The translations under genes were made by a program, and so were the position numbers. Of a stretch of DNA of 52,271 bases, positions 1-30,200 are shown one piece after another. The DNA lies in the IMG/VR virus record IMGVR_UViG_3300035070_002934, positions 1 to 52,271 of that record, one strand, 5' to 3'. Numbering within the stretch: position 1 is the stretch's first letter; every line of letters starts with the position of its first letter. Under the pieces are notes generated by a model. It did not search any database and was not told where the DNA came from. It was given only the letters and a program-made list of their open reading frames with translations. The stretch is from a virus. Lineage: Duplodnaviria; Caudoviricetes.

Positions 1-2
1 TA

Positions 3-338
3 GAGATTCGCAGCCTTAAAGAAAGGCTGCAAAAATGTGACAGTGACGATCACTTTTTTGTGAAAGATATTGCTAACCGACTTCCATCTGAACTGCTGCC
101 AAAAAACCCAACATGGGCGGCAATGCTGTCTGTAGTCACTATGTTAAAAACAGAGCGAAATAACGCTATTGCAGAAGCGGAGCGTTTAAAAGATGCGATA
201 AAAGAAACGATAGAAGAAAATTTAGATCTAGCAGATGGAGAAATCTGCACACTAATTAAACTAAAGCGAGCCATAAATTATGATGACAACAAACCGCTTA
301 CAGACGAAGAAATTGCATTTCAACGGTGGTGCGACTGA
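3..338 (+). CDS. hypothetical phage protein, 5'-truncated by the window edge
   Basis: The frame of ORF 60..338 is open back to base 3; the stop is followed immediately by an attC-like site. Confidence 0.6.
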   Translation, partial: EIRSLKERLQKCDSDDHFFVKDIANRLPSELLPKNPTWAAMLSVVTMLKTERNNAIAEAERLKDAIKETIEENLDLADGEICTLIKLKRAINYDDNKPLTDEEIAFQRWCD

Positions 339-339
339 C

Positions 340-394
340 ACATAACCTCGCCAGCAACGGCAAGCGTAGCGCGTCCGTTGATGTTTTGTTATGT
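340..394 (-). repeat. attC-like cassette recombination site 1
   Basis: ACATAAC(340-346)...GTTATGT(388-394) with inner CAACGG/CCGTTG arms. Confidence 0.75.
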
Positions 395-414
395 TCCAAT
401 TTTGAGGATTTGAA

Positions 415-633
415 ATGAGTAAGAACCTACATATAGCAACAAGCCCGCTTACTGGAACCATATTCGCGGGATCAGTTTTAAAAGATGGTAGAACGTGGAG
501 CGCAAACAAAAAAGACGTAACTATTGAGGCGTTAGTTGCTGTTGCTGAACATGCTTTGAAGTTTGGCAAACCTGTCGAAATAAGCAAAGCAGACGGAACG
601 CCAGAATTTAGAATTACAGTTGAACGATTATAG
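415..633 (+). CDS. cassette-borne hypothetical protein (72 aa)
   Basis: GAGG RBS; bounded by complementary GTTATGTTC(388-396)/GAACATAAC(633-641). Confidence 0.8.
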   Translation: MSKNLHIATSPLTGTIFAGSVLKDGRTWSANKKDVTIEALVAVAEHALKFGKPVEISKADGTPEFRITVERL

Positions 634-634
634 A

Positions 635-653
635 ACATAACACCTTATTAGAA
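635..653 (-). other. attI-like simple site A
   Basis: Minus strand reads TTCTAAT-AAGGT-GTTATGT (L box, 5-bp spacer, R box); no attC hairpin; nearly identical to 2851-2869. Confidence 0.55.
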
Positions 654-718
654 GGATTCCATTGATTCAGAAAATAGACGGATTCCGTCTAGTTAAAATA
701 ATGTCGGAGGTTTTAGTT

Positions 719-925
719 ATGGATATGCGCATTTATACAAAACATTGGGAAAATTGTATTGACAATGGCATAGAGCCGTATGCGTATGCTCAGTTGTTGG
801 ATGGGATCTGTGTCATTTGCGCGTCATGCTATTTACCCATAAAAAACGATGAGATAGGTAAAGCTGAAATTGCTGGGGAGTCAGCACACGTGAAGTGTGC
901 AGAGAAGTTCCTGAAGCAGTTTTAG
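719..925 (+). CDS. small Cys/His-rich hypothetical protein
   Basis: GGAGG at 706-710; CxxC and HxxC motifs. Confidence 0.55.
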   Translation: MDMRIYTKHWENCIDNGIEPYAYAQLLDGICVICASCYLPIKNDEIGKAEIAGESAHVKCAEKFLKQF

Positions 926-978
926 TGCTCAGATATTGTGAAACTAAATAATGTCGGGAAAGAGAGTAGGAAAGGTAC

Positions 979-1212
979 ATGAAATTATTAAAGATTGAAT
1001 TACATAGCGACCCTTACTACAGACTTTTATACGGCGATGATGTTTTAGGCATGGTAGAAAAGGTCGAGAAAGGTTACTTGGTGATGGGCAAAAGAAAGCC
1101 CGTTGAAACACTGAAAGACGCCGCCAAGCAGCTACTTGATAAGCAGATGAATAGGTGTTTGGCAGATCATGAAAAATACCGAAAGACACTACGGTCAATA
1201 TTGGACACCTAA
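979..1212 (+). CDS. hypothetical protein (77 aa)
   Basis: ORF with purine-rich RBS; stop TAA lies inside the ACCTAAC box. Confidence 0.7.
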   Translation: MKLLKIELHSDPYYRLLYGDDVLGMVEKVEKGYLVMGKRKPVETLKDAAKQLLDKQMNRCLADHEKYRKTLRSILDT

Positions 1213-1255
1213 CACCACAAGCACAACGGCCATTCCGTTGAACGCCTTGTTAGCT
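1207..1255 (-). repeat. attC-like site 2 (short, degenerate)
   Basis: Minus strand AGCTAAC-AAGGC-GTTCAACG...CGTTG...GTTAGGT. Confidence 0.7.
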
Positions 1256-1276
1256 GAACAGATTAGAGGGTTGAAG

Positions 1277-1519
1277 ATGAGTAGAAACACGCAAGCGTTT
1301 ATTGACCGCGTTGTTGAATACCGCGGGCTACCAAAATTAAAGAAAGGTATGCGATGTGAAGTCAATGGGAAGGCTGGGCGAGTTTGGGGCGGCAATGGCT
1401 CGGCAAATTTGGATGTGTTATTTGATGGCGAAAAACGGACCATGAACTGCCACCCCGACTGGAAGATGAAAATATTTAACGATGCTGGCGAGGTTATACA
1501 TGCCAGCGAAGACAGCTAA
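1277..1519 (+). CDS. cassette-borne hypothetical protein (80 aa)
   Basis: GAGGG RBS before MSRNTQ; bounded by GTTAGCTG/CAGCTAAC. Confidence 0.75.
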   Translation: MSRNTQAFIDRVVEYRGLPKLKKGMRCEVNGKAGRVWGGNGSANLDVLFDGEKRTMNCHPDWKMKIFNDAGEVIHASEDS

Positions 1520-1567
1520 CCAGAGTATTCAGAGGTGCGAAGCATCCGCTGGAATAGGTTGTTATGT
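1514..1567 (-). repeat. attC-like site 3
   Basis: Minus strand ACATAAC-AACCT-ATTCCAGC-GGATGCTTCGCACC-TCTGAAT-ACTCTG-GTTAGCT. Confidence 0.85.
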
Positions 1568-1589
1568 GACGATTAACTAAGGGGTATTT

Positions 1590-1775
1590 ATGACTGATGA
1601 AGAAATATTGAAAGTTTTTGAAAGAAAGGGAATGAGGATCGAGTTGGGCGCGCAATTTTCCGCGCGCGGTCAAATTGCAGCATTACTAGATGCTGCCAAA
1701 GAGATTAGCAAAGAAAGCTATATGCGCGGATCGAATGATTGTTATGCGGCAATGATGGCGCACAAAGTCATATAA
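1590..1775 (+). CDS. cassette-borne hypothetical protein (61 aa)
   Basis: AAGGGG RBS; bounded by GTTATGTGAC/GTCATATAAC (9 of 10 complementary). Confidence 0.75.
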   Translation: MTDEEILKVFERKGMRIELGAQFSARGQIAALLDAAKEISKESYMRGSNDCYAAMMAHKVI

Positions 1776-1824
1776 CCTTTCTATTTTGCGGCTGCTTGCA
1801 GTCCGAAAGAATGGGTTGTTATAT
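1770..1824 (-). repeat. attC-like site 4
   Basis: Minus strand ATATAAC-AACCC-ATTCTTTC-GGACTGCAAGCAGCC-GCAAAAT-AGAAAG-GTTATAT. Confidence 0.75.
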
Positions 1825-1850
1825 TTTATTTTTATTATTTTGGCCGAGCT

Positions 1851-2081
1851 ATGAGCATTAAAAATGATACAGGTTTAATTGAGAAGTACAAAGAACTTGA
1901 GAAGGTTGGCTCTGCAAAAGTTACGATCTTACATGACCAAGTTCTTGAGGTTGTTGTAGGTGACTTGATAGGCAAATATAAATCATGCAAGAAGTATGAT
2001 AATGACTCTGTAGCAAGTTTTGAAAAGGTGCTTAGGTTCTATCTTACAGATGACGAAATGAAAGAGATTGAAGAAATATAA
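1851..2081 (+). CDS. cassette-borne hypothetical protein (76 aa)
   Basis: Bounded by GTTATATTT/AAATATAAC; AT-rich. Confidence 0.75.
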   Translation: MSIKNDTGLIEKYKELEKVGSAKVTILHDQVLEVVVGDLIGKYKSCKKYDNDSVASFEKVLRFYLTDDEMKEIEEI

Positions 2082-2135
2082 CCAATAAGTTAACCGGCGC
2101 CCGAATGGGCGTCCGAGTTGAACTGGCGGTTAGGC
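2076..2135 (-). repeat. attC-like site 5
   Basis: Minus strand GCCTAAC-CGCCA-GTTCAACT-CGGACGCCCATTCGGGCGCC-GGTTAAC-TTATTG-GTTATAT. Confidence 0.9.
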
Positions 2136-2164
2136 GTTTACTCACAAATGTAGAAGGATTGAAT

Positions 2165-2440
2165 ATGCATATTGATGACTGGCTGGATTTGCCGGCCAAA
2201 GACGATGCGGAGAAGTTGGCCAAGGAATTTCTGGAGCACTGCCGTAGACCAGCGGCAGAAAAGGACTATGCATGGATCAGGGCCAACCCCCTGTTTTGCA
2301 CATACAAGGGCGAGCGGTGGCGAGTAGTTGGCGCAAGCCGCCTAGGTGACGTGTGGCTGTCAAAGCAATTCGACCGTGAAAACGGCTACGAAATCCGCCC
2401 CGATGTGGACGCGTGCAGCGATTGGAGCAAAGACGCCTAA
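2165..2440 (+). CDS. cassette-borne hypothetical phage protein (91 aa)
   Basis: AAGGA RBS before MHIDDW; bounded by GTTAGGCGT/ACGCCTAAC. Confidence 0.8.
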   Translation: MHIDDWLDLPAKDDAEKLAKEFLEHCRRPAAEKDYAWIRANPLFCTYKGERWRVVGASRLGDVWLSKQFDRENGYEIRPDVDACSDWSKDA

Positions 2441-2488
2441 CCCAACAGCTAAGCGGCGCTCTGCGTCCGCTTGAGCGCCTGGTTAGGC
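2435..2488 (-). repeat. attC-like site 6
   Basis: Minus strand GCCTAAC-CAGGC-GCTCAAGC-GGACGCAGAGCGCC-GCTTAGC-TGTTGG-GTTAGGC, a canonical R''/L''/L'/R' layout. Confidence 0.9.
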
Positions 2489-2514
2489 CCGTTGCACAAC
2501 TGGAGATAGACAAG

Positions 2515-2856
2515 ATGACCGAGAAGCGAACTGTTTGGGTGGCATACACCAACACCGACCTCACCGAAGGGCGAGGCCATGACGTGCCGATTGCCGTGTG
2601 CTCCGCAGAAGCAACCGCGCTGCGCATGGCGCACAAGCAGTATGTGCAGGGCAGTGACGGCCCGGTGCGGTCGATGGAGCTAGTGAAGATCGACGGCAAG
2701 TGGTACGCGCCGAGCCCCGCAATCAATGTGGTGGAGCCAACCCGAGAGGACGTTGCTGCACAGGCCGCGATTGATGCCAAGCGCGATGCGGTGGCGAAGG
2801 CAAAGGCCGCAGGTTTGACGGACGCCGATCTGCTGGCACTTGGATTAAGGGCCTAA
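2515..2856 (+). CDS. cassette-borne hypothetical phage protein (113 aa)
   Basis: GGAG RBS before MTEKRT; bounded by GTTAGGCCC/GGGCCTAAC; GC-rich. Confidence 0.8.
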   Translation: MTEKRTVWVAYTNTDLTEGRGHDVPIAVCSAEATALRMAHKQYVQGSDGPVRSMELVKIDGKWYAPSPAINVVEPTREDVAAQAAIDAKRDAVAKAKAAGLTDADLLALGLRA

Positions 2857-2869
2857 CACTTTATTAGAC
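2851..2869 (-). other. attI-like simple site B
   Basis: Minus strand GTCTAAT-AAAGT-GTTAGGC (inverted core boxes, 5-bp spacer). Confidence 0.6.
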
Positions 2870-2974
2870 GACAGTCGTCATAACGTGGCGTCTACGGCCT
2901 GTGGCAACACTGGATCGGGAGTTTTCCCGGCCGGCTCGCAAGGGCTTAACGGTAGACTAAGTAGGAGTCGATTG

Positions 2975-3121
2975 ATGTTCAAAAACATTCAGGCGCTACG
3001 TGGAAACATAGCGTGCTTTTATCTGGTTGGCGCGTATACAGAAGTTTGCTTTGAGAATGATGACGACAATCAAGGTGGCAAGGTTTTTATTAATGGCGTT
3101 TACCGCTATGCGTGTTACTAA
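2975..3121 (+). CDS. short hypothetical protein, possibly truncated by an internal stop
   Basis: AGGAG RBS at 2963-2967; frame stays open past TAA to 3190. Confidence 0.35.
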   Translation: MFKNIQALRGNIACFYLVGAYTEVCFENDDDNQGGKVFINGVYRYACY

Positions 3122-3213
3122 AAGACGATTAATACCCAGGCGGAAGAAAATGTTTTTGGTTGGGTCGAAACGCTGGATTTTATGGCGTAACATTTTAATG
3201 AGGAGCTGGCAAA

Positions 3214-3483
3214 GTGAATAACATTAACGTACATGATCTAGTAGTCGCACTGCGAGCCGTTGCTGTTGCCGTGCCGTTCGATCAGCAATGGTTTGATCTT
3301 GATCAGCTTGCTGCGTATCTGTGCTACTCAAAAACGCACGTAGAGCAACGGGTTTTAGGTCTGCCCGGATTCCCGGAGTCTGTAAAATGCGGATCAGGCA
3401 AGCGTTGGAGGGCGCGGGATGTTTGCAAGTGGTTGGAGTCGCAGACGGGTTCCTGTCGGCCTCGCAAGTCGGCATCAGGATAA
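3214..3483 (+). CDS. AlpA/excisionase-like HTH protein
   Basis: Small HTH with 'LAAYL..SKT..PGFP..RWRA.DV..W' pattern directly upstream of attP/int; GGAG RBS. Confidence 0.75.
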   Translation: MNNINVHDLVVALRAVAVAVPFDQQWFDLDQLAAYLCYSKTHVEQRVLGLPGFPESVKCGSGKRWRARDVCKWLESQTGSCRPRKSASG

Positions 3484-3488
3484 TTTTT

Positions 3489-3738
3489 TTGCGCCAAATT
3501 TACGCCAAACAGTTTTAAGTGTTTGATTTTTCAATCTTCTTGGTGCCGCCTCTGGGCACCATTATTATTTACGATATATCCCCGCAAAGCCGCATGAACA
3601 CTGGCTTGCAGCCAAACCAGCAAGGATGCTATGGCGTAAAAACTCTATACAAAATCCCCCATTTTTATGTATATTTTGCGACCCGTTACGCCAAATTTAC
3701 GCCCGGCGTTACGCCAACATTTTTATCAGTTACGCCAA
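3489..3738. other. attP-like region
   Basis: Core CCGCCTCTGGGCACCA (3546-3561, tRNA 3'-end-like); TTACGCC arm repeats at 3489, 3500, 3686, 3697, 3709, 3730; IHF consensus at 3516-3528. Confidence 0.75.
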
Positions 3739-3750
3739 GGACAAGGACGA

Positions 3751-4719
3751 ATGGCAACAATACGCAAAAGAGGCAAATCATGGCGCGCCGAACTCTGCGT
3801 CAACACTGTGCGCGACTCTCGCACGTTTGACACCAAAAGCGAGGCGATGACATGGGCTGTGGCGAGGGAAGCTGAGCTGAAAGTCGTTGCGCCGGGTGAA
3901 GATGACCATTCAAAGCGCACCGGGCCGGATTTGTTTGGCCGTTATTTAAAAGAGGTAAGCTCAATAAAGCGCGGCGCGAAATGGGAAAAGATCAGGCTGT
4001 TGAAGTTTATGGATTACCACCACTTCAAACGGCCTTTACGCCAGATTACGCCAGATCATATTGCGCACTGGAAACAGGAGCGACTGAAATCTGTCTCACC
4101 GTCAACGGTACGGCGAGAAATGAATCTGTTAAGCCACTGCTTTGAGACTGCGCGCAAAGATTGGCGATGGCTATCTGATAACCCATGCACCGATGTTTCC
4201 AAGCCGCCAGACGGCAAAGCAAGGGATCGGCTGATCAGCAACGATGAAATTACACTCATCCGCCATGCGCTTGGCTGGCCGGTCGATGGAGTTGCAGCAA
4301 CAAAAATGCAGTCGGTCGCCGTCGGATTTATGTTTGCGATTGAAACCGGAATGCGAATGGGGGAAATCTGTGGGCTGACGCATGAGGACATTGTCGGCAG
4401 CGTCGCAACACTCCGGCAAACAAAAAATGGCACAGCCAGGCGCGTACCGCTGTCAAAAAGGGCGGTCGAGCTGCTGTCATTTGTACCTGACCTCTGGGAT
4501 ATGAAGCCGCACCAATTTGAAGCGCTCTTCAGAAAAGGGCGCGACAGATCTGGTGTGGTCGGATTGACCTTCCACGACACGAGGCATGAAGCAATCACGC
4601 GACTCGCCAAAAAACTGGACGTGCTGGAGCTGGCGCGAATGGTCGGGCACAAAAACATCAATCAATTATTGGTTTATTTTAACGCTAAAGCGGAGGATAT
4701 TGCAGACATGCTAGGCTAA
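3751..4719 (+). CDS. int: phage tyrosine integrase (Rci/HP1-like)
   Basis: TGMR, K, HDTRH, GH and Y catalytic motifs; N-terminal MATIRKRGKSWRAE arm-binding motif; likely start 3751 with AAGGA RBS. Confidence 0.92.
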   Translation: MATIRKRGKSWRAELCVNTVRDSRTFDTKSEAMTWAVAREAELKVVAPGEDDHSKRTGPDLFGRYLKEVSSIKRGAKWEKIRLLKFMDYHHFKRPLRQITPDHIAHWKQERLKSVSPSTVRREMNLLSHCFETARKDWRWLSDNPCTDVSKPPDGKARDRLISNDEITLIRHALGWPVDGVAATKMQSVAVGFMFAIETGMRMGEICGLTHEDIVGSVATLRQTKNGTARRVPLSKRAVELLSFVPDLWDMKPHQFEALFRKGRDRSGVVGLTFHDTRHEAITRLAKKLDVLELARMVGHKNINQLLVYFNAKAEDIADMLG

Positions 4720-5297
4720 ATATGCGTCCAGCATTTTCTATGCCTCACACTACTTATTGCTGCCGGAGATACACCAAACAGAAGGGCAAGTTCAACGCCC
4801 TTTTTATCGGACAACCTAATATAAATTACATCTTCTGCCTTTAGCTTTGATGAATAATGTTCGCTCCCTCTTTTTAATCTCTCTCTCTGCGTTCTTGATG
4901 GGTGCTCATCCCCTCTTTTAGAGCACTGAGAGCGATCATGAGCCCTGTTCTTCCTGATCATATCTTGGATATTTTCTTTTTGCGTACCTGCAAACAAGTG
5001 TGAAGGATTAAAGCAGCTAGGGTTGTCGCACGAATGGCACACATTCAACCCATCATCAATGCATCCATTAAGCATTTCAAATGAAAATCTATGCGCGTAG
5101 TGGTGTTTTGGCTTCCCATTTTCACATGAAACATATTGACCATACCCGGCGCTAGTCAAGCTTTTTGGCCAATTCCAACACCCATCAACCCCATCAAACT
5201 CCTTAGCAATAGAAACAAATCTACATTTCGGGGAGCAGTATGGCGCTTTTCTGGCGTTCCTTGATTCATATTCTTTTTCACATGTATGACACTTCAT
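4716..5297 (-). CDS. free-standing HNH endonuclease
   Basis: GCWNW..GYG..AHR..VCHSCDNPSCFNPSHL..N motif with N-terminal Zn finger and C-terminal HTH. Confidence 0.88.
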   Translation of the reverse strand: MKCHTCEKEYESRNARKAPYCSPKCRFVSIAKEFDGVDGCWNWPKSLTSAGYGQYVSCENGKPKHHYAHRFSFEMLNGCIDDGLNVCHSCDNPSCFNPSHLFAGTQKENIQDMIRKNRAHDRSQCSKRGDEHPSRTQRERLKRGSEHYSSKLKAEDVIYIRLSDKKGVELALLFGVSPAAISSVRHRKCWTHI

Positions 5298-5618
5298 GCC
5301 AGCCTCATATAAATAACATTAACCAAGGTATTATTATAACGATAAGCTGTATATATATCCAGCATTACAATGAGACAGCCGAGAATCTGGCAGCAAAATT
5401 GAATTAACCCGTCCGCAGGGATGCTAAAACGGGCGCGACACCTGCACAGTGGAGTGACTGCCGGGAGAGACTGGCGCAACACAAACTACATTCAAAGATT
5501 TTCCCCTTTCGGTTTCATTTTGCTACATTAACACCATGGCAACGGATTGACTCTTCCGCGTATCGGCAAGGGCGCCAATGACATTAAGCGAGAATCAAAT
5601 GTACCGATCAGGATTAGA

Positions 5619-5837: not shown

Positions 5838-6016
5838 TGAAAAAAATAATCACAGCGCTCTTAATCTTGGCGGCGAGCACCGCTTACGCTACCGGGTTCT
5901 TGTCTGGTGAGCGTACAAGCGGCATGAAAAAGATCTGTTATTACGACACACCTAGCGGCACTGTCGCAATAACAATCAAGGCGGTTGAGCTTTGCCCGTT
6001 GACGATTAAGGATTAA
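5837..6016 (+). CDS. small secreted protein (59 aa; not in the ORF track)
   Basis: MKKIITALLILAASTAYA signal-peptide-like N-terminus, two Cys; TGATG coupling with the upstream gene. Confidence 0.65.
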   Translation: MKKIITALLILAASTAYATGFLSGERTSGMKKICYYDTPSGTVAITIKAVELCPLTIKD

Positions 6017-9000
6017 AAAACCTCGTCCGTCAATTCGGCATACTTCTTGGCAATAGCATTACGCTTTTCAATGAGTCCGTCCATCTTCTCGCGCTTGGCC
6101 TCTGCCGTAATGATTCTATTGCGGCTGAGTTGATCCATTTGCTTTCTGATATCGCCAAGCTGGTTTCTTGCCTTGCCTAACTGCCTACGGTAGCGCAGTT
6201 TTTCCAGGTTATCAGCCCTCAATTCTTCCGCCTCTTCTGTGCGGCCTTCTTTCTTGAATGAGTTGATTGTCCTGAAAACCTGATCTATTTCAGACCATCT
6301 ATCGAAAACGTCAGTGGTGTATTGCGTGGACTTGTTGGTATCTCCACGATAGAGTGCTTTAATAACAGGCAGGTCTTCCAGTTTCCATTCTGGTTTATCT
6401 GCTCGCCCGGTCGCATAGTCTGCGAACATATCCGCAATACCAAGCGCATACATACCCATTGTTCCCAGGTAGCCATTCAGCAAGTGCTCTAGCTTCTTGG
6501 GTGAGTACCCAGTCCATTCGCCAAGCACGCGCATAGTCATACTGGTGTTTTCGTCGTACCTGGCGGATTCGATCTTGCCTTCATCGCTCATACCCTCAAT
6601 AGGCTGATCAAAGAAAAACTTACGGTTAGCCACGCTTTCAATTATCGGCATAGCGAATTGTGGCGTAGGATTGATAGCCATGGTTTCCCATAAGTTATGT
6701 TTGATCGACCACAACAATTTTTCGGCGTCTTGTGTACCTGTCAGTGTGTGCGTCAGCCTTTCGGGAATAGTCCCGAACACAATACCAATCTCAAACGGCT
6801 TGGGCAGTCTGTAATGATCATCACCTAGCCAGAAATGCCAGTTTGCATCCTTATCCCAATCAGGAAGCTCCTGATATCTCTCGTCGTCATCATTGAGCAT
6901 GGCTAGTGCAAACGAGAACAAAGCCAACTTGAAACCAGCCTCAACAAGTACCCGCTTAGGGTTCTCATGCGCCGCCCTGACAAGCTTTGACATACCCTGA
7001 AGTCTAGCATTCATAAATGGTACAAGGTCTATCATGTACTGCATCATGGCGAAATTACCGCGCAATGAGTAGTCCATTAAATCCTTAGATTCAAAAGCCG
7101 CCTGCAAGATTGATTTGCCGCTTTTCTTTGCCGCCTTGTATGTTGCCAGTCTGTTAGCATTCTCCACCTTGTCGCCTAGTTCGCGGTACTTCTGCCATCC
7201 TTGTTTTATCGCATCAAGCCCTTTCGCTGGCGTATCCAACAATGACGATTCGTAGGCATGTAGCGCACGAGGTGAAAGCCCTTTCTTCTCTAACGCTCGC
7301 CTAATGATTTGCGCCGAGGCTTCCGGGTCTGTGCCGTGAACATAGCCACCTTGGAACGATGCCCCGGCAAACATTAGCTCTCGGTAGTCGGGGTCTTCTC
7401 TTAAGGCATCCTTCAAGCCCTTAATGCTATCCACGCCAAGCTTAAATCCGTCCGGGTTGATTGCCCAGGCGTGAGCGGCATCTCGAATAAAGTTCCTAAG
7501 AATAAAATCAGGCGAAGAGGTTATCCCGGTTGTTAACAGGCGCTTCATGTAACGCCCAACCTTTGTCACTGGATCATGAAAGCCAGGGTGTGAAAGATGA
7601 GTTATGGCGCGAAGCAATGCCGGGTCGTTAACCTTGTAATACTCCGGTTTTCCGTCACGCTGAATACGAATGATATTCTTGTCAGACTTCTTGCCAACAA
7701 AGTCTACTGAATTTTCGCCTGCAACTTCTTCCAGGTAATCAGAGCCAGCGAGGTTATCAACCGTTTTAACTAGGGCGCTATTCTTCATCGAAGCATCGGC
7801 CAGCTTCATCCAGTTTGCAAGGATGTTTTCTAGTAGATCGTTTGTTGCTTGTCCGCCGCCTTTTAATTGCTTAATACCAGAGGTCTGGTGTGATAACCCC
7901 TTGCTGGTTCTCGGTGCGAGAAGTGAAACATTTCCCGCTTCATCTTCAATTTCACGATAAAAAGGAATATACCAATCAGACTCCCATTTGGCGCGGGACT
8001 CAGCAGAAATAAGGCCAGACTCTTGCGCCATATCAAGCATGGCTTTGTTGAGTTTTTTATATTCCCTATGGATTTCTTTGAATAGAGCCTCTTTGCCTTT
8101 AGCTCTCGACTTCAAATCATCGATATCGGCTTGAGTAAGGTTGTTCTCCCTCCCTTGCGCCATCAACTCTTCTGCCCGGTGAGCGCCAACCCAAGCAAGG
8201 TAACTATGAAGATCTTTCCCGGCTTTGCCAAGGATATCAAGCAAGCCTTGTGTGCCTTCCTTGTATTGCAGCGCACCGTCTTTCCACTTGGGCGCGCCGT
8301 AGTGAAGTATGGCGTGCATAACGTCAGCGATACCCGTTGCCAGCCTCGCGCCAATGTAGCCTCTATTCTCGGCACCAGACACACCTACCGCCTTTTCCGC
8401 CCGATCAATACCGATCAGACCATCAAACATACCCTCATAGGCGCGATGCTTGAACATAGACCATAATGATTTTTCATTTTCTGCGGCAACGACCTTGTTG
8501 ATTGCCTCGGATAGCTTGGCCTTCCTCTTGGCGCCAAGACCGAACTTGTTTAGGGCTTCGTCTGTTTTTGCTGATCTCAGGGAAAACATAGGCCCGGAGT
8601 CATCAACGTCCATCAGAGGAATATCTGTGTAATCAACATAGTTTTCTGACAATCGCTTATCGGACGCCTTGCTATTTGTTCGTGTGTTTCTTTCATCGCC
8701 ATCACCTACATTAAAAATAACTTCACTATTATTGCTATAGTTCTTAGGACCTTTCCCTTCTACGGCCAATCTCGCATTTTTTAACACCAACAACAATTCA
8801 TTGGTATCAACATCAGCTAACTTTAAAAATCCCCGGTCACGCAAAAACTGCCGGATCTTTCCTATTAGCTCCTTGAAGGCTCGCTTAATTCCTGGCTTAT
8901 TGCTTTGAGCAAGGTGCGCAAGCAACTCGTCCATCATGATTTGGATCTTTGCTTCCGTCGGCTGCTTCGCCAGCCCTTCGGCATAAGCTTTCAGGTCAAT

Positions 9001-12000
9001 ACCATTCTTCTGTGCAATCTCATTAAAGCCGCGAGCTCCACCAATGGCGTAAAACAGGCGCATCAATTCACGGCCTACGTTCTCGCCAAGCAGTTTTCTT
9101 ATGCCATAATGTCCATAACCTTCGTGGAAAATAGCTTCTTCGACTTCAAGCGCGCTCATCAGGTTCTCTCTAACAAGGTAGATCTTTCCTTCATGAAATA
9201 CGCCATTTATCTCATTCCTGCCTGCGCCATACTCCTTTGCCTGGCTCTTTATCGCCGACGGAAGATCATCAAACGACTCGACCAAAACGATGTTATCCCG
9301 CCCTTTACTCCAACTGGCTGTGATACGGTCGATAATTTCATTTGCTTTCGCAGAAGTGATGGCAGCACCCTTTCTGGCAGCGGTGATTTTCGGGTTGATG
9401 GAAAACAAAGTCGATGATTCAAGGAAGCTAATATCTTGCAGTTCCACACCATCCGGTTTATGCCTAACGCCTTTGACCTCTATATTTGCCTGCTTGTCTT
9501 TTTCTGCGTAAACGTGAACATACTCACCGGAGTTTATGTTCCGCGATGGATAAACGTCATAAAACAGATTCCCATTCTTTACTTTCATTCCTAGAGTTTT
9601 ATATGTTTCACCTTCAAACATTAATTCTATGGAATCTTCTCTTTTTGATTTTCCTGAACTCTTAACATTTCTTTTTCGCTCGCGCTCGATGTACTTGTTA
9701 GCCTGCGTACTGCGCCTTTGATCTTCTTTCGCATCAGCGACTTCCACTTCCACCGCTAACCAATCATTAAAACTGCGCTCTTCCTCAAGACGATCCTTTT
9801 CTTTGTGTGCGCTTTTCGATACCACTTTCTTGGCTTCAGCGTAAGCATTCTTTTCAGCTTCAATGGCCTGCAATGTTTCAGATATAACAGATGATTTTGC
9901 TCTTTCCGCAACAAGCGGATTTAGCTTGTTTAGCAAATCTTCTGATCCAATAAATGTCGCCATAGCTGGTTTTTCATAGCTATATATCGGCGTCCGACCA
10001 TGAAGATAAGTTATTTCAATATCATAGACAGTCTTGTCCTTGTCGCTGTAAAACGCATTCCTAGAAACATCCACTTCGAGGCTTGAGTTTTCCCCCAGGG
10101 CAATTGATCCACTCCATGAATTGACCTTAGCGTTAATCGCCTCCATTGCTGGCACGACAACCCTTTCATTCAGCAACTTCGTGTAATCGTGCGTTATTGC
10201 GTGGATTTTTGGCCTAATTGGTCTAACTGGCTTCTTGGCTCCCTTTTTTGCCTCATCACTTAACGCCTCATAGGATTCAAAAGCGGTTTCAAAAGCTGAT
10301 AATTCCTTCTCGAATTTTTTATTTTGCTCACTTACTGCCGCATCAAGTGATTGCATGTCAAATTCTGTAACGCTGAACTTATCAGCAGCCTCTTTACGGG
10401 CATACAATCGCGCCAAGTATTCATCATGGTTTTCTATGACTCTTTCGGCTCCGCTTCGGCTTGAACTTGCCGCATAGTAGTCCGTTTGCGCTTCAACCAA
10501 CCGAGCATCCGATTGCAACTTATGCTTATATATTGGATTGCCTGTAGAGGAAGCCTTAAATTCTGCATAACTATCCGCATCCCCCCCTTCATCATCCACA
10601 TATTCATCAAGACCACCAGAACGGAATTGTTCTATTGCTGCCGCTTTTCTTTCCAATATCTGCCACATAACGGGATCTGATGACCCTTGTGTCGCGTAGG
10701 CAACAATCTCAACCTCAAACCCTTCAGGATCACGGGTATACAGGTCGTTACCCTGACGAATGATCCGGCCTTCACGTTGCTCCATGTCGCTAGGCCGCCA
10801 GGGTGCATCCATGTGATGTAATGCAACCAATCGCTTCTGTGCATTGGTCCCAGCCCCCATCTTAGCGGACGAGCCAATTAATACGCGCACATCCCCGGAG
10901 TTCACTTGATCGAATAGCGCCTTTTTCTTATCAACAGAGTCATAATCATGGATAAACGCTATCTCATTCTCAGGGACCCCCGCTTCCATAAGCGATGCTT
11001 TAAGATCATCGTAAACACTAAAGCCCGTATCTGCCGTTAATACAGAAGACTCTAAACTGGATATCATGTCTTGTAGCGCCTCTTCCTGCGAGGCGTCTAT
11101 ATCTCCTGATTGCTGCGCCTTTTCTATCCGCGACACAATATCTTGCAATACTTTTGAGTAGGCATCCTCGTCATAGAAAGCGATACGTTCATTAACCAGT
11201 TTGGTCGCCGCTGCATCTGACATAGCCATTGACGCTAAAGCCTTTAACTCTTTTTTGACGGAGCCTTTTGCATACTTAGCAGGCGTTCCCATGTCACTAA
11301 ATACAAGTTGAGCACCTTTATCATTTTGCCATTGGTCATAAATCCGTTTGATATTCTTTGCTGCTCGTGCAACTTTCCCAGTAGGATCTCTGCGTGATGC
11401 AGGATCAACTAGCCGGATATCAAGCGAAGCCTTGCGAGCGTCAGACAAAACCCATAGAGGGTTATCAATGCTCGCGTATTCTTTTCGCTCTTGCCGCCCT
11501 TTGATCGCCTCAATTGCTGACATTCTAGCTATAAGGTAATCGTTGTACTCTCTCTGTGTTTCGGTTGCTGGCGCTAAATCCAATCTGCGCTGACCACCCT
11601 TTACTTTCGGTATAGGAAAAGCGGTAGAGTCGTTCGTTTTATTCTTCTCGTTCTTCTCTGCGGTATCTTCTGCAAAAATGTTCACCATATCCGCTCTGGT
11701 TATGACATCTGCAAATTGCCGATACTTTACCGACAACTCTTGCATGTTACTTAAACCTTTGAGAACCACCCGCTCTTTAACTGAACCCGTTGGCGTATAT
11801 TCGAGAGCCGTTTCAGTATTTAGAAATGAGCCAGCAAAAGCGTCATAGTGAGAGATAGATCCGTCTTTTAGTACGTCATAGCCGAGGTAATACATCATGG
11901 TATAAACCTCGACAAGACTGTTACTAATCGGCGTCCCAGTCATAAAGGTCACGCCGCCATTATCCAAACCTTGAACTACCCTTGTCTTGGTTAATAGATC

Positions 12001-15000
12001 AAGCGCCTTTTCAGAACCTTTAGGATCATTCATGCCAACAACACGATCACTACTTGTTGAGTAAGTCAGGTTCTTGAATTCATGCGCCTCATCGACAACC
12101 AGGTAATCAACGCCTAGATCAGAGAAATCAAAGCCTATAGCATCGTGCGAAGATTCTATCGCCTTTTTCTTCTTCTCTATCTTATCCACCATGCTAGAAA
12201 TGGAATCTTCAATCTGCTTGGTTGAAGACCCTCTTCGGCCTGATTCTTTTGCTTGAGACTTTGCCTCTTCCAAAGCCGCCCGAAGCTCAGATATCTTTTC
12301 ATTTACAACAGCCGCGAAGGAGTCAAGGCTATTCGGCAAGTAGCGCAAATGGGAATGACCGATGATCACAGCATCATAATCACCCGTAGCAATCCGAGAG
12401 AAGAATTGCTTTCTATGTGCAGGTTTCATCTGCTTTTCAGTCGCGGTAAGAATGTTCGCGCCAGGATATAGTTCATAGAAGTCGGCAGTGAATGCGCCGA
12501 TAATATGGTTAGGCACAACCACCATTGGCTTCTTGCTCAAGCCGAGGCGTTTACGCTGCATTATCCCGCTGATGGATGTAAATGTTTTTCCAGCACCTAC
12601 CGTATGATCCAGCAAAACATTTTTGCTCTGAACCATTCGTAGTGCGCCATCTAACTGCGTCTTACGCATTTCAATAGTGGGGTTCTGTCCAACAGGTGTA
12701 AAATAAAGCCGCCCGTTAAATTTGCGCTCGATATGCGTATTCACGCGCTCGTTAAAGTTTTTGGCGATTCTATCCATTATAGAACTGTTATTGCTCGCCC
12801 AGGTGTTGAATACCTGCGCCATCTTGTTCACCAAGACATTTACCTGCTTTGTTCCCTCTTCATGCTTTACCTGATTACCGTTACCATCCTTAGTGTATAT
12901 AACCAAGGATTTACCCGCCGCCGCCGCTTCGAATAACTCAGGGATACCCTTGTAATCGTTTTTGAACTGCGCTCCAATTTCGGTATTGGACGATCCATTT
13001 ACCGTTGCAATTCGCACCGTTCCAAGTTGACGATTAACATTAACCTTTGCCTTAATGCCTACGTCCTGTAAAAACTGCTCGAATACTTCCGCATCCATCC
13101 AAGACGCACGAACAGAAGCCTTTATTTTATTAACGGGCTTATCTTTTGGCAGCACACTCTTCAACAGCTTTTCGTTAACAACGAGGCCAGCATCTTTTGC
13201 TTCATGGTATTTGCGCTTAACATTGCCAGACAAATAGTCGTCAATAAACACAAGCTCATCTATTGCAGGATCTTTTAACAAATATGGCCTGTTGCCCTTT
13301 GTTAGTGATTCACGCGCTTGTAGCTTTGAAACTCCAAGCAACTTAGCAATGTAACCAATGTCAACCTTGCCATGTTCGCGAATCGAATAATTCACCGCAT
13401 CATGGATATCCGAAGCCTTTGTCGGTTTCTTGTATGGCTGCATCATCCGTTGTGAAAATATCTTATGCTTTTTCACGTTGCCTTTTTTATCAACGCTATC
13501 AAGGCCAGATTCAATGCTGATATCGTCACGCAGAAGATTAAGACTTGCAGATATAGAGGCAGGCTTGTTCTTACTGCCATACGTTTTAGCAAACGCATCA
13601 TATTGCTTATTTAGCCTTGCCCTAAACTGCTCAATCGTTCCGAGATCCTGTTTCTCTGCGCGAATTAAAGATAATGCGGTATTTCTAATGGCTAAAAGGT
13701 CTTTCAGCTTGTTGTATTTGTCGCCAAGTGACGATGAGGCTATGCCGCTATCAAGCTCACGCTCCAAAGTGGCTTTCGATATTTCACGCTTACTATATGC
13801 CTGGATAGCTTTAAAAGGTTTTGATGTGTACCCAGACTTTAACGCGCCACCATTGTTCGTTAAATTTTCCCTGAAAGCTGTCTCGAATGCCGTTTCATCA
13901 TTGAGTAATTTGTCTCTCAGTTCCGCAAGTAATTCGCCGTTGGCCGTCCATGGTGTAGAAGGCGTCACTTCAACAATGCTTGCGCCAAGCTCTGTATCAT
14001 CCCCTCGCATCTGAATCTTGCCGTCTGCATCAAGCATCATGCCACCAATAGGCAAAGAACTTTCTGAAAGCAACACCTCGCCTGCGAGAGAGTCCTTTAT
14101 CTCATCTGTTAACGCAAGGTTATAACCTTTAGCCATTTCCTTTAATGCAATAGACACCGCCGAACGAATATCACCATATTCTTCTGTTGGATGAACCGTT
14201 AACTCTTCCTTTCCAGCCCTTAATGTCCCATCATTCGCTAATCGCCCAAGGATGTTTTGTGGATTGCTTTCAAAGTATTTATTAATCCTGATACCATCAA
14301 TGTTGCCGTTAACATCCGTCCAAACAGTATTGCTCGACTTCTCGCCATTCTTTAATTTGCGGAATACAACGATATCGGTAGTAACTTCCGTCCCGGCATT
14401 GGATTTAAACGCCGTATTTGGTAGTCGGACAGCGCCAACGAAATCTACAACACTGGACAAATTGCGGTGATTTTCGTTTAAGGTATCTAAGAATCGATGG
14501 GTAACGACCATCATCATCAAGCCGTCTTCATGCAACAGTTTGGCGCTTTTCGCAATCATATAATTGTGAATGCGTAAACCTGAAATATCCGGGTTCCTTT
14601 CATCTGTGATTGTTTCACTTCCGAAAGGCGGATTACCAATCGCCAACGAAAAGACATTGCTCTTAAATGGTGTATCCTGGAATCCTCGCACCTGGATATT
14701 CGCGTCATCATAGATCAGCTTTGCTATATTCCCTGTTACCGTATCCAGTTCTGAAGCCGACCACTTGGATTTTTCGCGCATAGCAGAAGGTTGCCAGCCG
14801 ATAAAATTCCCTGAACCGACCGAAGGCTCGACAACATTCATGGCCGAACCACCAAGACCGAACGCCTCAACGCCCTGCCACATAGCCTTCACTATTTCTT
14901 TTGAAGTGTAAAACGCCGTCCTGGTAGAAGATCGAGCATTGTTATATTCAGTTGGAGTTAAAAGCGCCTTTAACTCTGTGTGCGCTTCTTGTGCAAACTT

Positions 15001-18000
15001 CTTTTTCGTAGTGTGGTCGAATACGAAAGACAGACCACCCCATCCAACGTATTTCGCTAGAACATTCTTTTCATCGGTTGTCGCATAACGGCCACTGGAT
15101 TGAATCTCTTTCATTAGCCTGATTGCGGCCAAGTTTGCATCAACCCTTTGTTTATCAGTTCCGTTTGCAATCCCTTCAATGTTTTCTAAAGAAAAGCCTG
15201 GTGCTTCAGGATTATTCGTATTGCTTCGCTCTGAGCTGTCGCTTTCCCCGCTCCCGATGCCATCAATACTTCCATTTCGTCCATCACCATCGCTGCCAGG
15301 GCTTTTGTCTCCCTCTCCAATTCCGTCTGCCCCATCTTCGCGTATCTCCCCTGATCCGCCACGCTGCTCTTCACTATTTCCTGTATTGATTTGATTGTCA
15401 TCTGCCGATTCCTCTAATTGACCATTTCTGATATCTTGCGCAAACCTTACTATGTAGGGTTTCACGCCTACCCCGAAATTGTCAAGAATCGCTCGAATAA
15501 GATCTTTCAAATCTTTTCCTGCCGCCTGAAAATCTCTAAGCATGGAAACAAAGTGAGGCTTGGCTTTTTCGTAAGTTTGCTCGTCAAAAGTAAGGCCGCT
15601 TGATAGTGTGCCTTTCCCTCCAAACAATTCAGCTAGGCCATTGATCGCGTTCATTCCTGCCTTGCTGACATTAACGCCCATGCTCTTGGCTATTTCAGCC
15701 GCCGCTCTTTCTTTGTCTGATTCAGAAGGTGCAGACTCTAACTTTTCGGCTTTTGTTTTTCTTGGTGTTAGCTTGCGCTTGCCGCCTTCTTTTTTGCTTG
15801 AAGGCTTACGCTCTTTGACAGGCTTTGTGTTGTCTACAGGATTTGACTCGTTAGCGACTTCATCTATTAGAGCCAGTAGATCATCATCTGACATAGCGGC
15901 CATTTGCTCTGCTAGTCCAGTATTTTGGCTTTCAGCTTGGTCGCTTTTTGGTGTAGCTTGGTCACTTTTGCCAAGTAAATCAGCTAATTTGTCCCTAACT
16001 GAACTTTCCCTACTCTTCGGAAACATCCATCCTTGCTGTCTTGAATGCCACTTCCCGCCAGCGGCCTTTATCCTGTCCTTATGCGTTCTAGTGTCACCCT
16101 TAACTAGAATTGCCTTATCAGATATTTCCTCGATGTATAACGGGCTGTCAGATTCAATAACCGCATCCTGAAGTGCATCTTTCGGTTTCTTGGCTTGATC
16201 ACTCTCTGACTTCTGCCCTTCAGCCCTCCTTATCCGGTGCGCCTCTCTAAACTCGATAGCATGCTTGTTGCCAATCTCGCTCATCATCATGATGTAATCG
16301 TAGCCGACAGGTGAGTTTGTAATCTCTTTGATAACCCGCTCTTCTGTGCCGTGCTTTGCCGCCAGATCTGATATTTCGCTGTCTGTTAATCTGCGGCCAT
16401 GCTTAATGGTTATCTCTGCAATATCGCGTGCTATTTCCTTTTTTGAACTAGCTTCAACATTAGCCCTGAGCAGTGCTGATATCTTGGAGTTCTCAGGATC
16501 ATAAGCTTTTTCACTCTTTGGCTTTGGCTTTGGCTTGACCTTTGGCTCTTTTGGTTTCGACTCTTCATTTCTCGCTTCCATTTCAAATGGAGTCGAGGAA
16601 TTGTCCTCCTGCTGTCCCTTGCTCTCTGTTTTTGATTCTGGTGTATCAGCAAAAATATCCGTCTGACCATTCGCCATAGCGATATCAGCGGCGCTATCGG
16701 AACCAGACAAGGTGAAACTATCCACCTCTTTGTCGGCATCGATGCGTGCTTCTTCTTGCGCCTTGGCTTCGGCTTCTGCCTGGTTAGCTTTGGTAGCTTC
16801 GGCCTCTTGTTGCGCTAATGATTCTTCGGTTTGCGTTTCAAGCTGGAAGTCTTGCCCCGATACTTCGCTTTGAATTTCGCGCAATAGATCCGGGTGCTTA
16901 TGCCACTCTTCATACCTTTCCGCTTCTGCCGTCAATTCGGCAATGCGCCTCTTCAGGCTTTCAGGATCTTTAACGTCCACGCCTTCTTGCTTGGCCAGCT
17001 TTGGATTCTTAGCCGCACCTTTGACAGCGGCAATACGCTCTTTTATTTGTCTCTGCTTTGAAGAGGCGGCCTTAGCCATTGCCTCGGCTTGTTTCATGGC
17101 AGAGTCATCAAAGCCAAACAAATCACCCTCTTGTGTCATGTCTGGTTTGCTTTTCAGCGTCTTGGCGGCACGAATCATATTGACTGCTACCGACTGCGTC
17201 TTGCCATCCTGAATGGCCTTTAAGCCTATTGCCTGGTAAGCCTCATCTTTCGGCGCTACTCGGGTAATGGCTTCTGCCGCTGCCTCGGTGATTTGATCGT
17301 TACGAAGGGCGGTAACGAGGCTATCACTTCCCTCTTTTGCGATGGTGTAAGCCCTTCGCCCCAATTGGCGAGAGGTGATTCCGAGCTTTTCACTTTCTTG
17401 TTCGGTGATTCCTGATGATCGGAAGAATTCGACATAATCTTTTACGCTCCCTTGGTTGTCTCTAATGTTCAATATAGCATCAAGCGCTTTACCATGATCT
17501 GCGGTGAATCCGTCAGCTTCATAGTGCAATTGTGCGGGAATGTCTTTCTGATTGCTACGCTTGGCAAGGTCGAACCTGTGACGACCTGTCAGGATCTCTT
17601 TCTTGCCATTCTTTCTCACCCACACCTGAATGGGGGCCATGCCCACTTCATCATACTCGCCGCGCAACTGTTCAACCACGCCATCTTTACTAGCACCGGA
17701 TTTGAACTGTGGCACATCCTCAGACAATGTTAGCTCGTCCAGATTAACCCTGGCCTGTTTGCGCTTGGGATCAAACGATTGGCCGCTATCAGTGCTCTCG
17801 TTGTCCAGTTTAGCTACTTTGGCCTTTTCCATTGGCGGCGGCAAGGCTAGTCTTTCCCTGTCATTCCTGCGGGTAATAAGAGGCTTGTCTTCTTTGCCTA
17901 TCCAGTTGTCGGGACCACCTAGTTCCGGGTCGCCCTGTTGTCCGTCAATGAAGGGACGATCAAGGCGCAATCGGTCAATGCCTAGCTGCGGATCTTTCTC

Positions 18001-28702: not shown

Positions 28703-29630
28703 CATACATTCGACGCCATTCGCTACTATGACGTCCGCCCCATAAACTCTTGATACCCTTTCCCGCGCTTCATATCCTTTACGGTATCAACAGGAACACC
28801 TACCAATCTCGCTATCTCAACGGAGTTCAACTTACCGTCTTGCAGCAATCTCGCAACCTTATACGCCTCTTCATCGCTCATTTTGCGCTTAGGGCTTGGC
28901 TGATTCTTCCTGGCGTATCCCGCCTTTATCCTGCTGACATGAGAAGGCGAGAGGCCTGTTAGCTCGCTAACCTTTCTGCCAGTCCTGCCTTCATCAAGAA
29001 GGTGCTTAACTTCTCTAATCTGCTCGTCAGAATATTTGCTAAGGTTACTCTCTGTTCCTGAGAAACCTCTATTCTTGTCGAAGCAGTCTTTGATGTTGTC
29101 GCTTTGAGACCCAAGGAATAAGTGGTCTGGATTAAAGCACTTAGGGTTGTCGCAGTGATGGCAAACAAAGACATCATCAGGTATCAGCTCACCCTTGAAT
29201 GCGGTGTAAGCTGCTCGATGAGCCATAATCTTTTTGCCCTCAAACACGCCGGGTATTCTAAATGATCCATACCCAATGGTTGTGGACCCTTGCCACTCCC
29301 AACAACCTTTTTTGCTTATCTCCATCTTTGTTACTAAGAGTTTTAGGACTGCCTCACGTTTCCATGAGGATTGGACTATATCTTCACCCAATCTATTAAA
29401 TTGGGGCTGGGCGCTTCCATCCTGCTTAGGATGTACTCTACTAACTGCACTTGTTGATTGTGCGTTTTCGATAGTCTCTGAACGTTCCCCTTTCGGGGCT
29501 TCGCTGCTGATTGTCATCTTATAATACCTCTCAATACCTCGATTGAGTCCATATTATACATTAGAGTTCCAGCAATTCACCCAGTTTTTAGCATTAGATC
29601 ACTCTAATGGGAGACCACAGTATAGGTCGA
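28703..29630 (-). ncRNA. group I intron 2 of the MCP gene (928 nt)
   Basis: 5' exon ends in U, intron ends in G; P1 GGAGAU/GUCUCC; P 29569-29577, Q 29504-29512, R 29472-29482, S 29374-29384. Confidence 0.9.
28726..29517 (-). CDS. intron-encoded HNH homing endonuclease
   Basis: GCWEW..GYG..AHR..VCHHCDNPKCFNPDHL motif plus two HTH-like repeats. Confidence 0.88.
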   Translation of the reverse strand: MTISSEAPKGERSETIENAQSTSAVSRVHPKQDGSAQPQFNRLGEDIVQSSWKREAVLKLLVTKMEISKKGCWEWQGSTTIGYGSFRIPGVFEGKKIMAHRAAYTAFKGELIPDDVFVCHHCDNPKCFNPDHLFLGSQSDNIKDCFDKNRGFSGTESNLSKYSDEQIREVKHLLDEGRTGRKVSELTGLSPSHVSRIKAGYARKNQPSPKRKMSDEEAYKVARLLQDGKLNSVEIARLVGVPVDTVKDMKRGKGYQEFMGRTS

Positions 29631-30200
29631 ATCTCCAGGTAACTTAGCTCTGATCTGCTCTGGCTCGACAATCGCCTCCGCCACGGTGTCAGCGCCGAAG
29701 AAGAAGGCCGCATCAGACTTAGCGTTATTCCAGGCTTCATAGGCGATATTGGTCTGCGTGAAGAAACGAATTCCCTCATAACGACCGATTTCACCCGCTG
29801 CAATCCGACTAAAACCAGATTCGATATAGAAACTGATAGCTTCCAGATCGTCCTTAAAGGCGCGGAAGGTTGACGGACGCGCCAATGCACAGTAGTTCTC
29901 ACCGTCATAAGGCGTGATATTGCGCTCTGCCATCGCATCAGCGATTAACTTCACATGCTCTTTTCGCAATGCTACGTTGTTGGTGACACCGCCTGCCGTG
30001 CCATCAGTATTAATAGCACTGATCGTGGTGGCAGAATCACCCGTACCGCCTGCGGTCACTGTCAACTTGGTTTTGTTGAACTCAGTGTAAGCCGCGGCGT
30101 CCAGCGTTTTACAAGCATCATTCTTCAACACCTTGTCAATCACACGCTCGCAAGAGTGCTTAGATAGGATATCGACCTTGCGAGTGTAGGGAACAGAGTT
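29631..30200 (-). CDS. major capsid protein exon 2
   Basis: NSVPYT...GEIGRYEGIRF...RAKLPGD, N4-gp56-like. Confidence 0.9.

Follow-up and report, generated by a model that had tools for sequence, protein, structure and literature searches.

In integrons, selectivity for the bottom strand of the attC recombination site sets promoterless cassette genes the right way round behind the promoter Pc; some toxin-antitoxin cassettes of sedentary chromosomal integrons nevertheless carry their open reading frame (ORF) in reverse orientation. We describe here an array of attC sites at the left end of a phage record, IMGVR_UViG_3300035070_002934 (linear, 52,271 bp, about 86% complete; the whole of it is called the window below). 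Clusters of attC sites lacking integron integrases (CALINs) are defined by at least two attC sites of the same strand, spaced by less than 4 kb, in the absence of a nearby IntI (PMC4889954, PMC9892861). The text of Qi et al. (2023, PMC9892861) counts 17 of them in 10,705 phage genomes and reports recombination of five sites by IntI1; sites of TJE1, PH101 and P12002L recombine with this enzyme, the first two being described with the typical layout and those of P12002L as lying in 'divergent directions'. IntI can also place a cassette, facing either way, at 5'-GWT-3' sites of a genome (Loot et al., 10.1101/2022.09.11.507474). The array in the window is a CALIN: three matches to our covariance model R1 (see below) with E<0.1 fall within 1 kb, all on the + strand, and the record holds no IntI. 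We rate it as quite probable that this left end is a CALIN whose attCs are reversed relative to their genes, set in the accessory early-left operon (+ strand, 1-3200) that leads into xis and int, and built of units of the form C-attC-ORF-TAA.

The left boxes of the array (NNNTAAC) begin at 340, 635, 1207, 1514, 1770, 2076, 2435 and 2851, and the right boxes (GTTANNN) at 388, 1249, 1561, 1818, 2129 and 2482. Relaxed ends of this type are present at all six hairpins, and the strict RYYYAAC/GTTRRRY consensus is satisfied by 2435-2488 only. The first-pass annotation, made from the sequence alone, had placed attC sites here and held that they are reversed relative to their genes; the sites are where it put them, and the array reaches further, from 340 to 2857. 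Every ORF of the array is on the + strand, with its stop in or next to a box as had been noted: the stop is the TAA of the box in six of nine (orf4 to orf9), and in two others it lies 2-3 nt ahead of one. Ribosome-binding sites (RBSs) stand 20-29 nt past the right box, and RBSs and start codons are present for the + ORFs.

To read the polarity of the sites we took as reference the class 1 integrons of R100 and eight other plasmid records, with 13 attCs read on the gene strand. On that strand the aadA1 attC runs GTCTAAC-AATTC-GTTCAAGC...GCTTAAC-TCAAGC-GTTAGAT, a 7-5-8...7-6-7 layout and the one cited in the first-pass annotation, and in folds constrained so that AAC and GTT pair, all 13 have one-sided bulges beside the L box on the 5' arm. 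Both strands of the window sites were folded to locate the extrahelical bases, a check the first-pass annotation had proposed. The constrained folds of the + strand put the bulges on the 3' arm at four of six sites, in the series G,(A.G),T at 1514, G,(G.A),T at 1770, G,A,T at 2076 and G,T at 2435, and the hallmark of attC, an unpaired central spacer with extrahelical bases on one arm, was likewise found at four of six. Bottom-strand attCs have their extrahelical bases on the arm opposite 5'-AAC-3', named G16/T20/T24 in VCR2, G16/A20/T24 in oxa2 and G16/T23 in aadA7 (Nivina et al., PMC5027507); the window bulges match this bottom-strand geometry and its spacing, with G,A,T and G,T as in oxa2 and aadA7. 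Fold z-scores are -3 to -4 for 340, 2076 and 2435 and weak for 1514 and 1770. Neither strand free-energy differences nor purine skew discriminated between the strands, and no Rfam family matched the hairpins.

The covariance model, R1, was built from 42 representatives of the family of 2435-2488 and 7 class 1 attCs, all aligned as bottom strands. It scored 2435-2488 at 62.1 bits on the + strand (E 3.5e-12) against 17.6 on the minus, and matched 2076-2135 on the + strand only (E 2e-5). The best five of its 11 matches with E up to 10 in 52 kb all lie within 1207-2488, and elsewhere in the 52 kb there is no match better than E 3. On the position of the extrahelical bases and on R1, joined for 2435-2488 by its IntI-linked family, the + (coding) strand is confirmed as the integron bottom (recombinogenic) strand at 1514-1567, 2076-2135 and 2435-2488, the three sites at which the asymmetry had been called clearest. 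The fold of 1770-1824, whose right arm is 81% like that of 1514-1567, suggests the same polarity.

The family to which 2435-2488 belongs is widespread. Its right-arm pattern, CCGCTTGAGCGNCNGGTT, matched at least 120 viral contigs, with 87 of 133 right-arm matches belonging to the same 55-70 nt element, and a stricter two-part pattern matched at least 120 bacterial contigs, mostly metagenome-assembled genomes (MAGs) of Betaproteobacteria and Gammaproteobacteria; the family surveys, cassette counts and alignment comparisons that follow concern loci fetched among the matches listed. In 23 loci an IntI is encoded, 45-74% identical to IntI1 over at least 250 aa, and there the pattern lies on the intI strand with intI downstream at 51 of 51 sites, which gives the pattern strand the geometry of an integron bottom strand. 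The site at 2435-2488 is a near-identical member of this IntI-adjoining family. In all eight contigs in which orf1 or orf8 has a homologue no more than 600 nt from a family site, that homologue lies on the bottom strand of the site, and in four of the loci (L087, L136, L099, L241) orf1 homologues stand beside family sites on the same strand; orf8 and orf9 have relatives of 45-78% identity in other viral contigs.

Two side observations concern the fetched loci. One bacterial MAG contig (L222) carries at 6445-7158 seven tandem 57-nt family attC sites, about 80-207 nt apart and with no room for an ORF, which look like ORF-less cassettes. Eight contigs labelled viral in IMG/VR (L063, L078, L093, L067, L030, L102, L065, L095) have 7-14 attCs on one strand, some with a true IntI as well, and may be integron arrays or integron-bearing prophages, not plain phages.

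The boxes that flank one ORF are complementary at 7/7 positions in five of the six single-ORF units and at 6/7 in the sixth, and a 7/7 match between the boxes at either end of the same hairpin occurs in just three of six hairpins. Such chimeric pairing is expected from exchange inside one box, and does not by itself decide which; the left box is taken as the boundary because of steps in base composition and breaks in homology between loci. GC content is 0.35 over 1776-2081, 0.54 over 2082-2440 and 0.62 over 2441-2856, then drops after 2856; the steps coincide with the AA|C points 2081|2082 and 2856|2857 and so point to a foreign block bounded by left-box AA|C, the hairpin bodies upstream of orf8 and orf9 included. 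High-scoring segment pairs (HSPs) between fetched loci with at least 100 nt of downstream flank, 73 in number, collapsing to 39 unique pairs and 9 cassette families, share the whole site and end 2-10 nt before the left-box AA|C in 72 cases; only 7 HSPs enter from the upstream side. It follows that an attC body moves together with the sequence that lies downstream of it on its bottom strand, which agrees with integron chemistry; in the window that sequence is a + strand gene. These results show the unit to be C-attC-(20-29 nt with RBS)-ORF-TAA, its last three bases being the stop codon for orf4 to orf9, and bear out the earlier claim that the attC sits upstream of its gene.

Metagenome contigs from four runs match small parts of 1-5300, with depth peaking on the two GC-rich attCs. 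Several match only from 2079, or from 2430-2438, rightwards; one from run X1 agrees with 2851-3182 at all but 2 positions and is unlike the window over the 1,225 nt before that; and single contigs join 341 to 1772, 636 to 1772 (left box to left box) and 2850 to 2435, so that every joint is at left boxes. These matches weakly fit exchange at AA|C, and the contigs may come from other organisms.

The orientation of attC in phages and bacteria, a survey that had also been proposed, was assessed with an nhmmer profile of the alignment, which mapped 482 full sites in the fetched loci, each inter-site unit being classed by its dominant ORF. The ORF lay on the top strand in 65 of 137 cassettes from bacterial contigs, on the bottom strand in 9 and on an unclear strand in 63; the corresponding figures for 101 viral cassettes were 9, 28 and 64 (Fisher p = 4e-11 per cassette). 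Per locus, bottom-strand majorities stood against top-strand majorities at 19 to 6 in viral and 3 to 32 in bacterial contigs (p 8e-8). A cruder, noisy count of ORF ends pointed in the same direction (viral, 36 bottom and 26 top of 87; bacterial, 24 and 58 of 139), and codon-position GC (the GC3 signature) agrees with the strand call for 89% of viral-bottom units and for 22% of viral-top units. Pfam matches were obtained for none of 9 viral-top ORFs and for 12 of 37 bottom ORFs, which gave N6_N4 methylase (four), RNA ligase (two), Phage_gp49_66 (two), DpdA, methyltransferase and REP_ORF2-G2P, with a weak Acb2/Tad1 match also on the list. The 24 of 60 bacterial top ORFs with a match have typical cassette functions (tautomerase, glyoxalase, GNAT, TIR, Barstar, Imm53). 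Clear phage genes (such as tail, terminase, RecT/Erf, primase or NinG) accompany the bottom units in 13 of 18 viral loci; in two others there is no more than a methylase or a thymidylate synthase, and the remaining three lack such genes. The recurrence of the reversed layout in many phage contigs is suggestive of a pool of exchangeable genes that phages maintain for themselves. The first-pass annotation had spoken of a phage-adapted cassette class; the enrichment in phage contigs and the phage-type genes agree with that, and the layout is neither exclusive to phages nor universal among them.

In the mechanism we propose, the promoterless units would be transcribed by read-through from a phage promoter, and that the genes are read from the phage early operon is plausible from their setting. 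Each attC is separated from the next start codon by 20-29 nt only, promoter-like sites in the array number 7 against 7.6 expected, no excess, and no + strand terminator-like site was found within it except one weak consensus match inside 1770-1824. A host IntI would excise and insert the units by bottom-strand exchange of attC with attC at 5'-AA|C-3', in a box overlapping the stop codon, and exchange or excision junctions would read GCCTAA|C-CCAACAGC and similar. Orientation relative to attC would be kept in the process, and units passing between phage arrays of the same polarity would lie in sense; in a bacterial integron they would be antisense to Pc, which had been foreseen and follows from the polarity. 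Another part of the earlier proposal, the addition of new cassettes at the promoter-distal end, is not supported: no attI was found in the record, and without one attC x attC insertion could occur at any site. The one hint in its favour is the differing metagenome DNA to the left of 2851.

Candidate reasons for the reversal are insertion at secondary sites of the type TAA|C (attG), selective survival of those bacterial cassettes that entered antisense, and a benefit gained when the folding strand is the non-template strand. We put forward tentatively, and with some doubt, a wider proposal: that phages of beta- and gammaproteobacteria keep a mirror-image pool of integron cassettes whose promoterless genes, each preceded by an attC, serve in counter-defence or as accessories (methylases, DpdA, RNA ligases, small unknowns) and are shuffled between phages by SOS-induced IntI of the host at induction, with the recombinogenic strand of attC being the non-template strand of the early operon. 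The inversion would then be adaptive, placing genes in sense among phages, silencing traffic with bacterial integrons, and letting transcription expose the folding strand.

A number of observations weigh against the reading of the left end as an array of reversed mobile units. TIGR02249, the IntI model, has no match anywhere in the incomplete record. Polarity is ambiguous at site 340, and 1207 is bulge-free or too short to tell; only three sites reach E<0.1 with R1, which missed 340 and 1770. Homologues of orf8 and orf9 occur also without attCs (L004, L001), the single viral relative of orf9 (L001) having none, and orf8 is preceded by one attC in the window and by a different one in L002, so no window unit has been shown to have moved intact. 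The metagenome joints are single contigs aligned at 88% likeness with sides of 23-62 nt, and no recombination product of the window phage was seen. The ORF-strand calls of the survey are heuristic, with 127 of 238 cassettes unclear and loci that are not independent, and IMG/VR labels were checked for 18 loci only. Reversed units are found also in IntI-linked arrays (L102, L095, L196), and one 96-aa bottom-strand cassette (L034:742-1032, L102:2244-2534) is common to L034, L102, L189 and L202; being shared by a phage-like contig and IntI-linked arrays, it places reversed units in real integrons as well. In TJE1, R1 recovers the three published sites (24.5, 20.2 and 19.3 bits). Each of them lies on the minus strand, at the 3' end of a + gene, and the array is thus canonical, in agreement with its authors. 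This shows both that the model can call either orientation and that reversal is not universal in phages.

A rival reading makes the layout a by-product of insertion: ORF-less or decayed cassettes would have entered at secondary, attG-type sites directly behind stop codons (TAA|C, giving 5'-AA|C-3' on the sense strand), or, of the bacterial cassettes, none but the antisense ones would have survived and later lost their ORF. The phage genes would be residents that came to lie between attCs, and the polarity a target or survivorship bias instead of the mark of an adapted cassette class. IntI insertion at 5'-GWT-3' sites in either orientation (10.1101/2022.09.11.507474) provides for this, the tandem 57-nt sites of L222 (spacing about 80-207 nt) show that arrays devoid of ORFs do exist, the attC-less homologues of orf8 and orf9 are ordinary phage genes, and the C-terminus of orf8 is shorter in the window than in these homologues, its stop being supplied by the box. 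We nonetheless regard such an origin as rather unlikely: the site body and the DNA downstream of it are common to unrelated contigs with a break at the left box, which implies that they move as units, and the strong orientation bias needs an extra assumption. It would in any case explain the origin of the layout and is compatible with later mobility. It is more improbable still that the sites are fossils, or exapted hairpins that no longer recombine and act at the RNA or DNA level, for instance in RNA processing or translation coupling. The missing IntI, the degenerate sites at 340 and 1207, the lone boxes at 635 and 2851 and the modest fold z-scores at 1514 and 1770 would suit relics, but the boxes pair chimerically across ORFs as in live arrays, 2435-2488 is near-identical to sites adjoining IntI genes, composition is mosaic at AA|C, and the hairpins are absent from Rfam.

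We give very little credence to a canonical orientation, with + as the top strand or the true genes on the minus strand. The ORF stops lie in boxes of RYYYAAC type, as is often seen in R'' of ordinary cassettes, and at 1207 and 2435 the minus strand folds a little more stably; against this, the folds, R1 and the intI-linked family all place the bottom strand on +, and real genes on the minus strand, which the first-pass annotation had named as a refutation, run counter to the RBSs, Pfam and PHROG matches and homologues of the + ORFs. Hardly any weight, too, falls to the phage's own integrase as the enzyme acting on the sites. It lies downstream on the same strand, as intI does relative to bottom strands in real integrons, yet its matches are those of a generic phage integrase (phrog_1, PF00589) and do not include TIGR02249, the TTACGCC repeats in its surroundings resemble arm sites of an attP of its own, and the text of Cury et al. 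(PMC4889954) takes the same view of such neighbours.

The findings show sites of the same family as class 1 cassettes in systematic use in the opposite orientation, in phage early operons and with cargo of phage type. Should host integrases move these units, phages would possess a site-specific means of modular swapping of early accessory and counter-defence genes, and the phage and bacterial pools would share one recombinase, each silent in the other's arrays. Surveys that assume the order ORF then attC will mis-annotate phage arrays of this kind. The predictions made here on strand, crossover point and SOS dependence are concrete and can be tested.

Table 1. Features of the array and of the genes it leads into (positions in the window; boxes are given as left/right).
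Feature	Position	Strand	Remarks
orf1	3..338	+	5'-open, 111 aa; stop TGA 2 nt ahead of box 340
attC-like hairpin	340..394	+	boxes ACATAAC/GTTATGT; polarity ambiguous; missed by R1
orf2	415..633	+	DUF7446 / phrog_1578; domain and PHROG matches
lone left box	635..652	+	ACATAAC + 15-nt repeat (TAACACCTTATTAGA); no attC-like fold after it
orf3	719..925	+	no attC between orf3 and orf4
orf4	979..1212	+	stop = TAA of box 1207-1213
short weak attC-like site	1207..1255	+	boxes ACCTAAC/GTTAGCT; R1 11.8 bits, E 1.3
orf5	1277..1519	+	phrog_6245/2730; stop TAA within box 1514-1520
attC site	1514..1567	+ (= bottom strand)	3'-arm bulges G, T; R1 17.6 bits, E 0.058, + only
orf6	1590..1775	+	stop TAA within box 1770-1776
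attC-like site	1770..1824	+	3'-arm bulges G, T; missed by R1
orf7	1851..2081	+	cassette GC 0.35; stop TAA within box 2076-2082
attC site	2076..2135	+ (= bottom strand)	bulges on the 3' arm (G, A, T at 3-bp spacing); R1 32.7 bits
orf8	2165..2440	+	cassette GC 0.54; stop TAA within box 2435-2441
attC site, widespread proteobacterial family	2435..2488	+ (= bottom strand)	bulges G, T; R1 62.1 bits
orf9	2515..2856	+	cassette GC 0.62; stop TAA within box 2851-2857
lone left box	2851..2868	+	GCCTAAC + 15-nt repeat; right edge of array
xis/AlpA-like small ORF	3214..3483	+	phrog_4996/6355; precedes integrase
phage tyrosine integrase, not IntI	3751..4719	+	phrog_1, PF00589

PHROG matches identify the window as a lambdoid temperate phage. 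The minus strand carries the terminase, portal, tail and lysis genes together with those for a Q-like antiterminator and O/P-like replication, and a repressor-like and an Ant/Rha-like gene are on the + strand at the right end; the run of small + ORFs at 3-3121 leads into xis and int, the position of accessory early-left genes. The spacer between xis and int, 3489-3750, holds many TTACGCC(AA) repeats, from which it is probably attP with arm-type integrase sites, and a terminator-like hairpin at 3541-3561 (+). The integrase gene itself matched as a generic tyrosine recombinase only, with no match to TIGR02249. Directly after it and convergent with it is an HNH endonuclease gene (4716-5297, minus strand). 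Elsewhere, two group I introns lie on the minus strand of the structural/late region at 29352-29633 and 30237-30543 (Rfam RF00028, 100.1 and 75.1 bits), the former overlapped by an HNH endonuclease ORF (28726-29517, minus strand), and one ORF of 4409 aa (6013-19242, minus strand) adjoins the tail genes.

The lone boxes at 635 and 2851 are each followed by a shared 15-mer (638-652 and 2854-2868) with a slight, loose likeness to attI1; neither 635-705 nor 2851-2900 contains an attC-like fold. A scan of viral contigs with the 15-mer gave at least 118 matches, mostly chance. In four of these (L359, L277, L305, L285) there is a longer element, TAAC-AC(Y)TTTA-TTAGA, followed by palindromes of the ACGGAATCCGT type; it starts at a stop-codon TAAC box, and degenerate attC, operator and promoter are candidates for what it is. 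Just upstream of orf3 and orf4, at 696-707 and 946-957, is an exact 12-nt repeat, AAATAATGTCGG.

Among cultured phage genomes, blastn with 1-5300 and with a 63-nt family site gave no match, and a 3.4-kb array as query returned methylase genes only. A search of the full-text literature produced no description of systematically reversed phage cassettes, with the figures and supplements of Qi et al. as places where attC directions may be shown. Phage CALINs, attG insertion and strand selectivity are already known; for the reversed phage cassettes we found no description, and on that footing take them to be new.

Compared with class 1 attCs and those of beta- and gammaproteobacterial chromosomal integrons, the window sites have the same boxes, unpaired spacer, G/x/T pattern of extrahelical bases and AA|C crossover, and the columns of 2435-2488 line up one by one with those of the aadA1 attC bottom strand and of IntI-adjacent sites. 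They differ from canonical cassettes in that the ORF is on the bottom strand, the attC comes before the gene and the cargo is of phage type, and from a complete integron in that the record is without intI and no attI was found in it. With the phage CALINs of PMC9892861, as its text presents them, the window shares an attC cluster without IntI in a phage, and methyltransferases are frequent cargo in its relatives. Whereas TJE1 is canonical, the window is reversed throughout; the single weak R1 match in P12002L (13.2 bits, E 0.56) falls between two methylase genes and is on the coding strand. Off-target insertion at attG has in common with our array an entry route at GWT/AWC sites, and the lone boxes at 635 and 2851 resemble such junctions; that study (10.1101/2022.09.11.507474) describes no orientation bias, in contrast to the strong bias found here. 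The toxin-antitoxin cassettes with promoters of their own are alike in having the ORF opposite to the usual orientation relative to attC, but they are scattered exceptions, whereas the window array is wholly reversed and promoterless, with leaders of 20-29 nt, and co-oriented with the phage operon.

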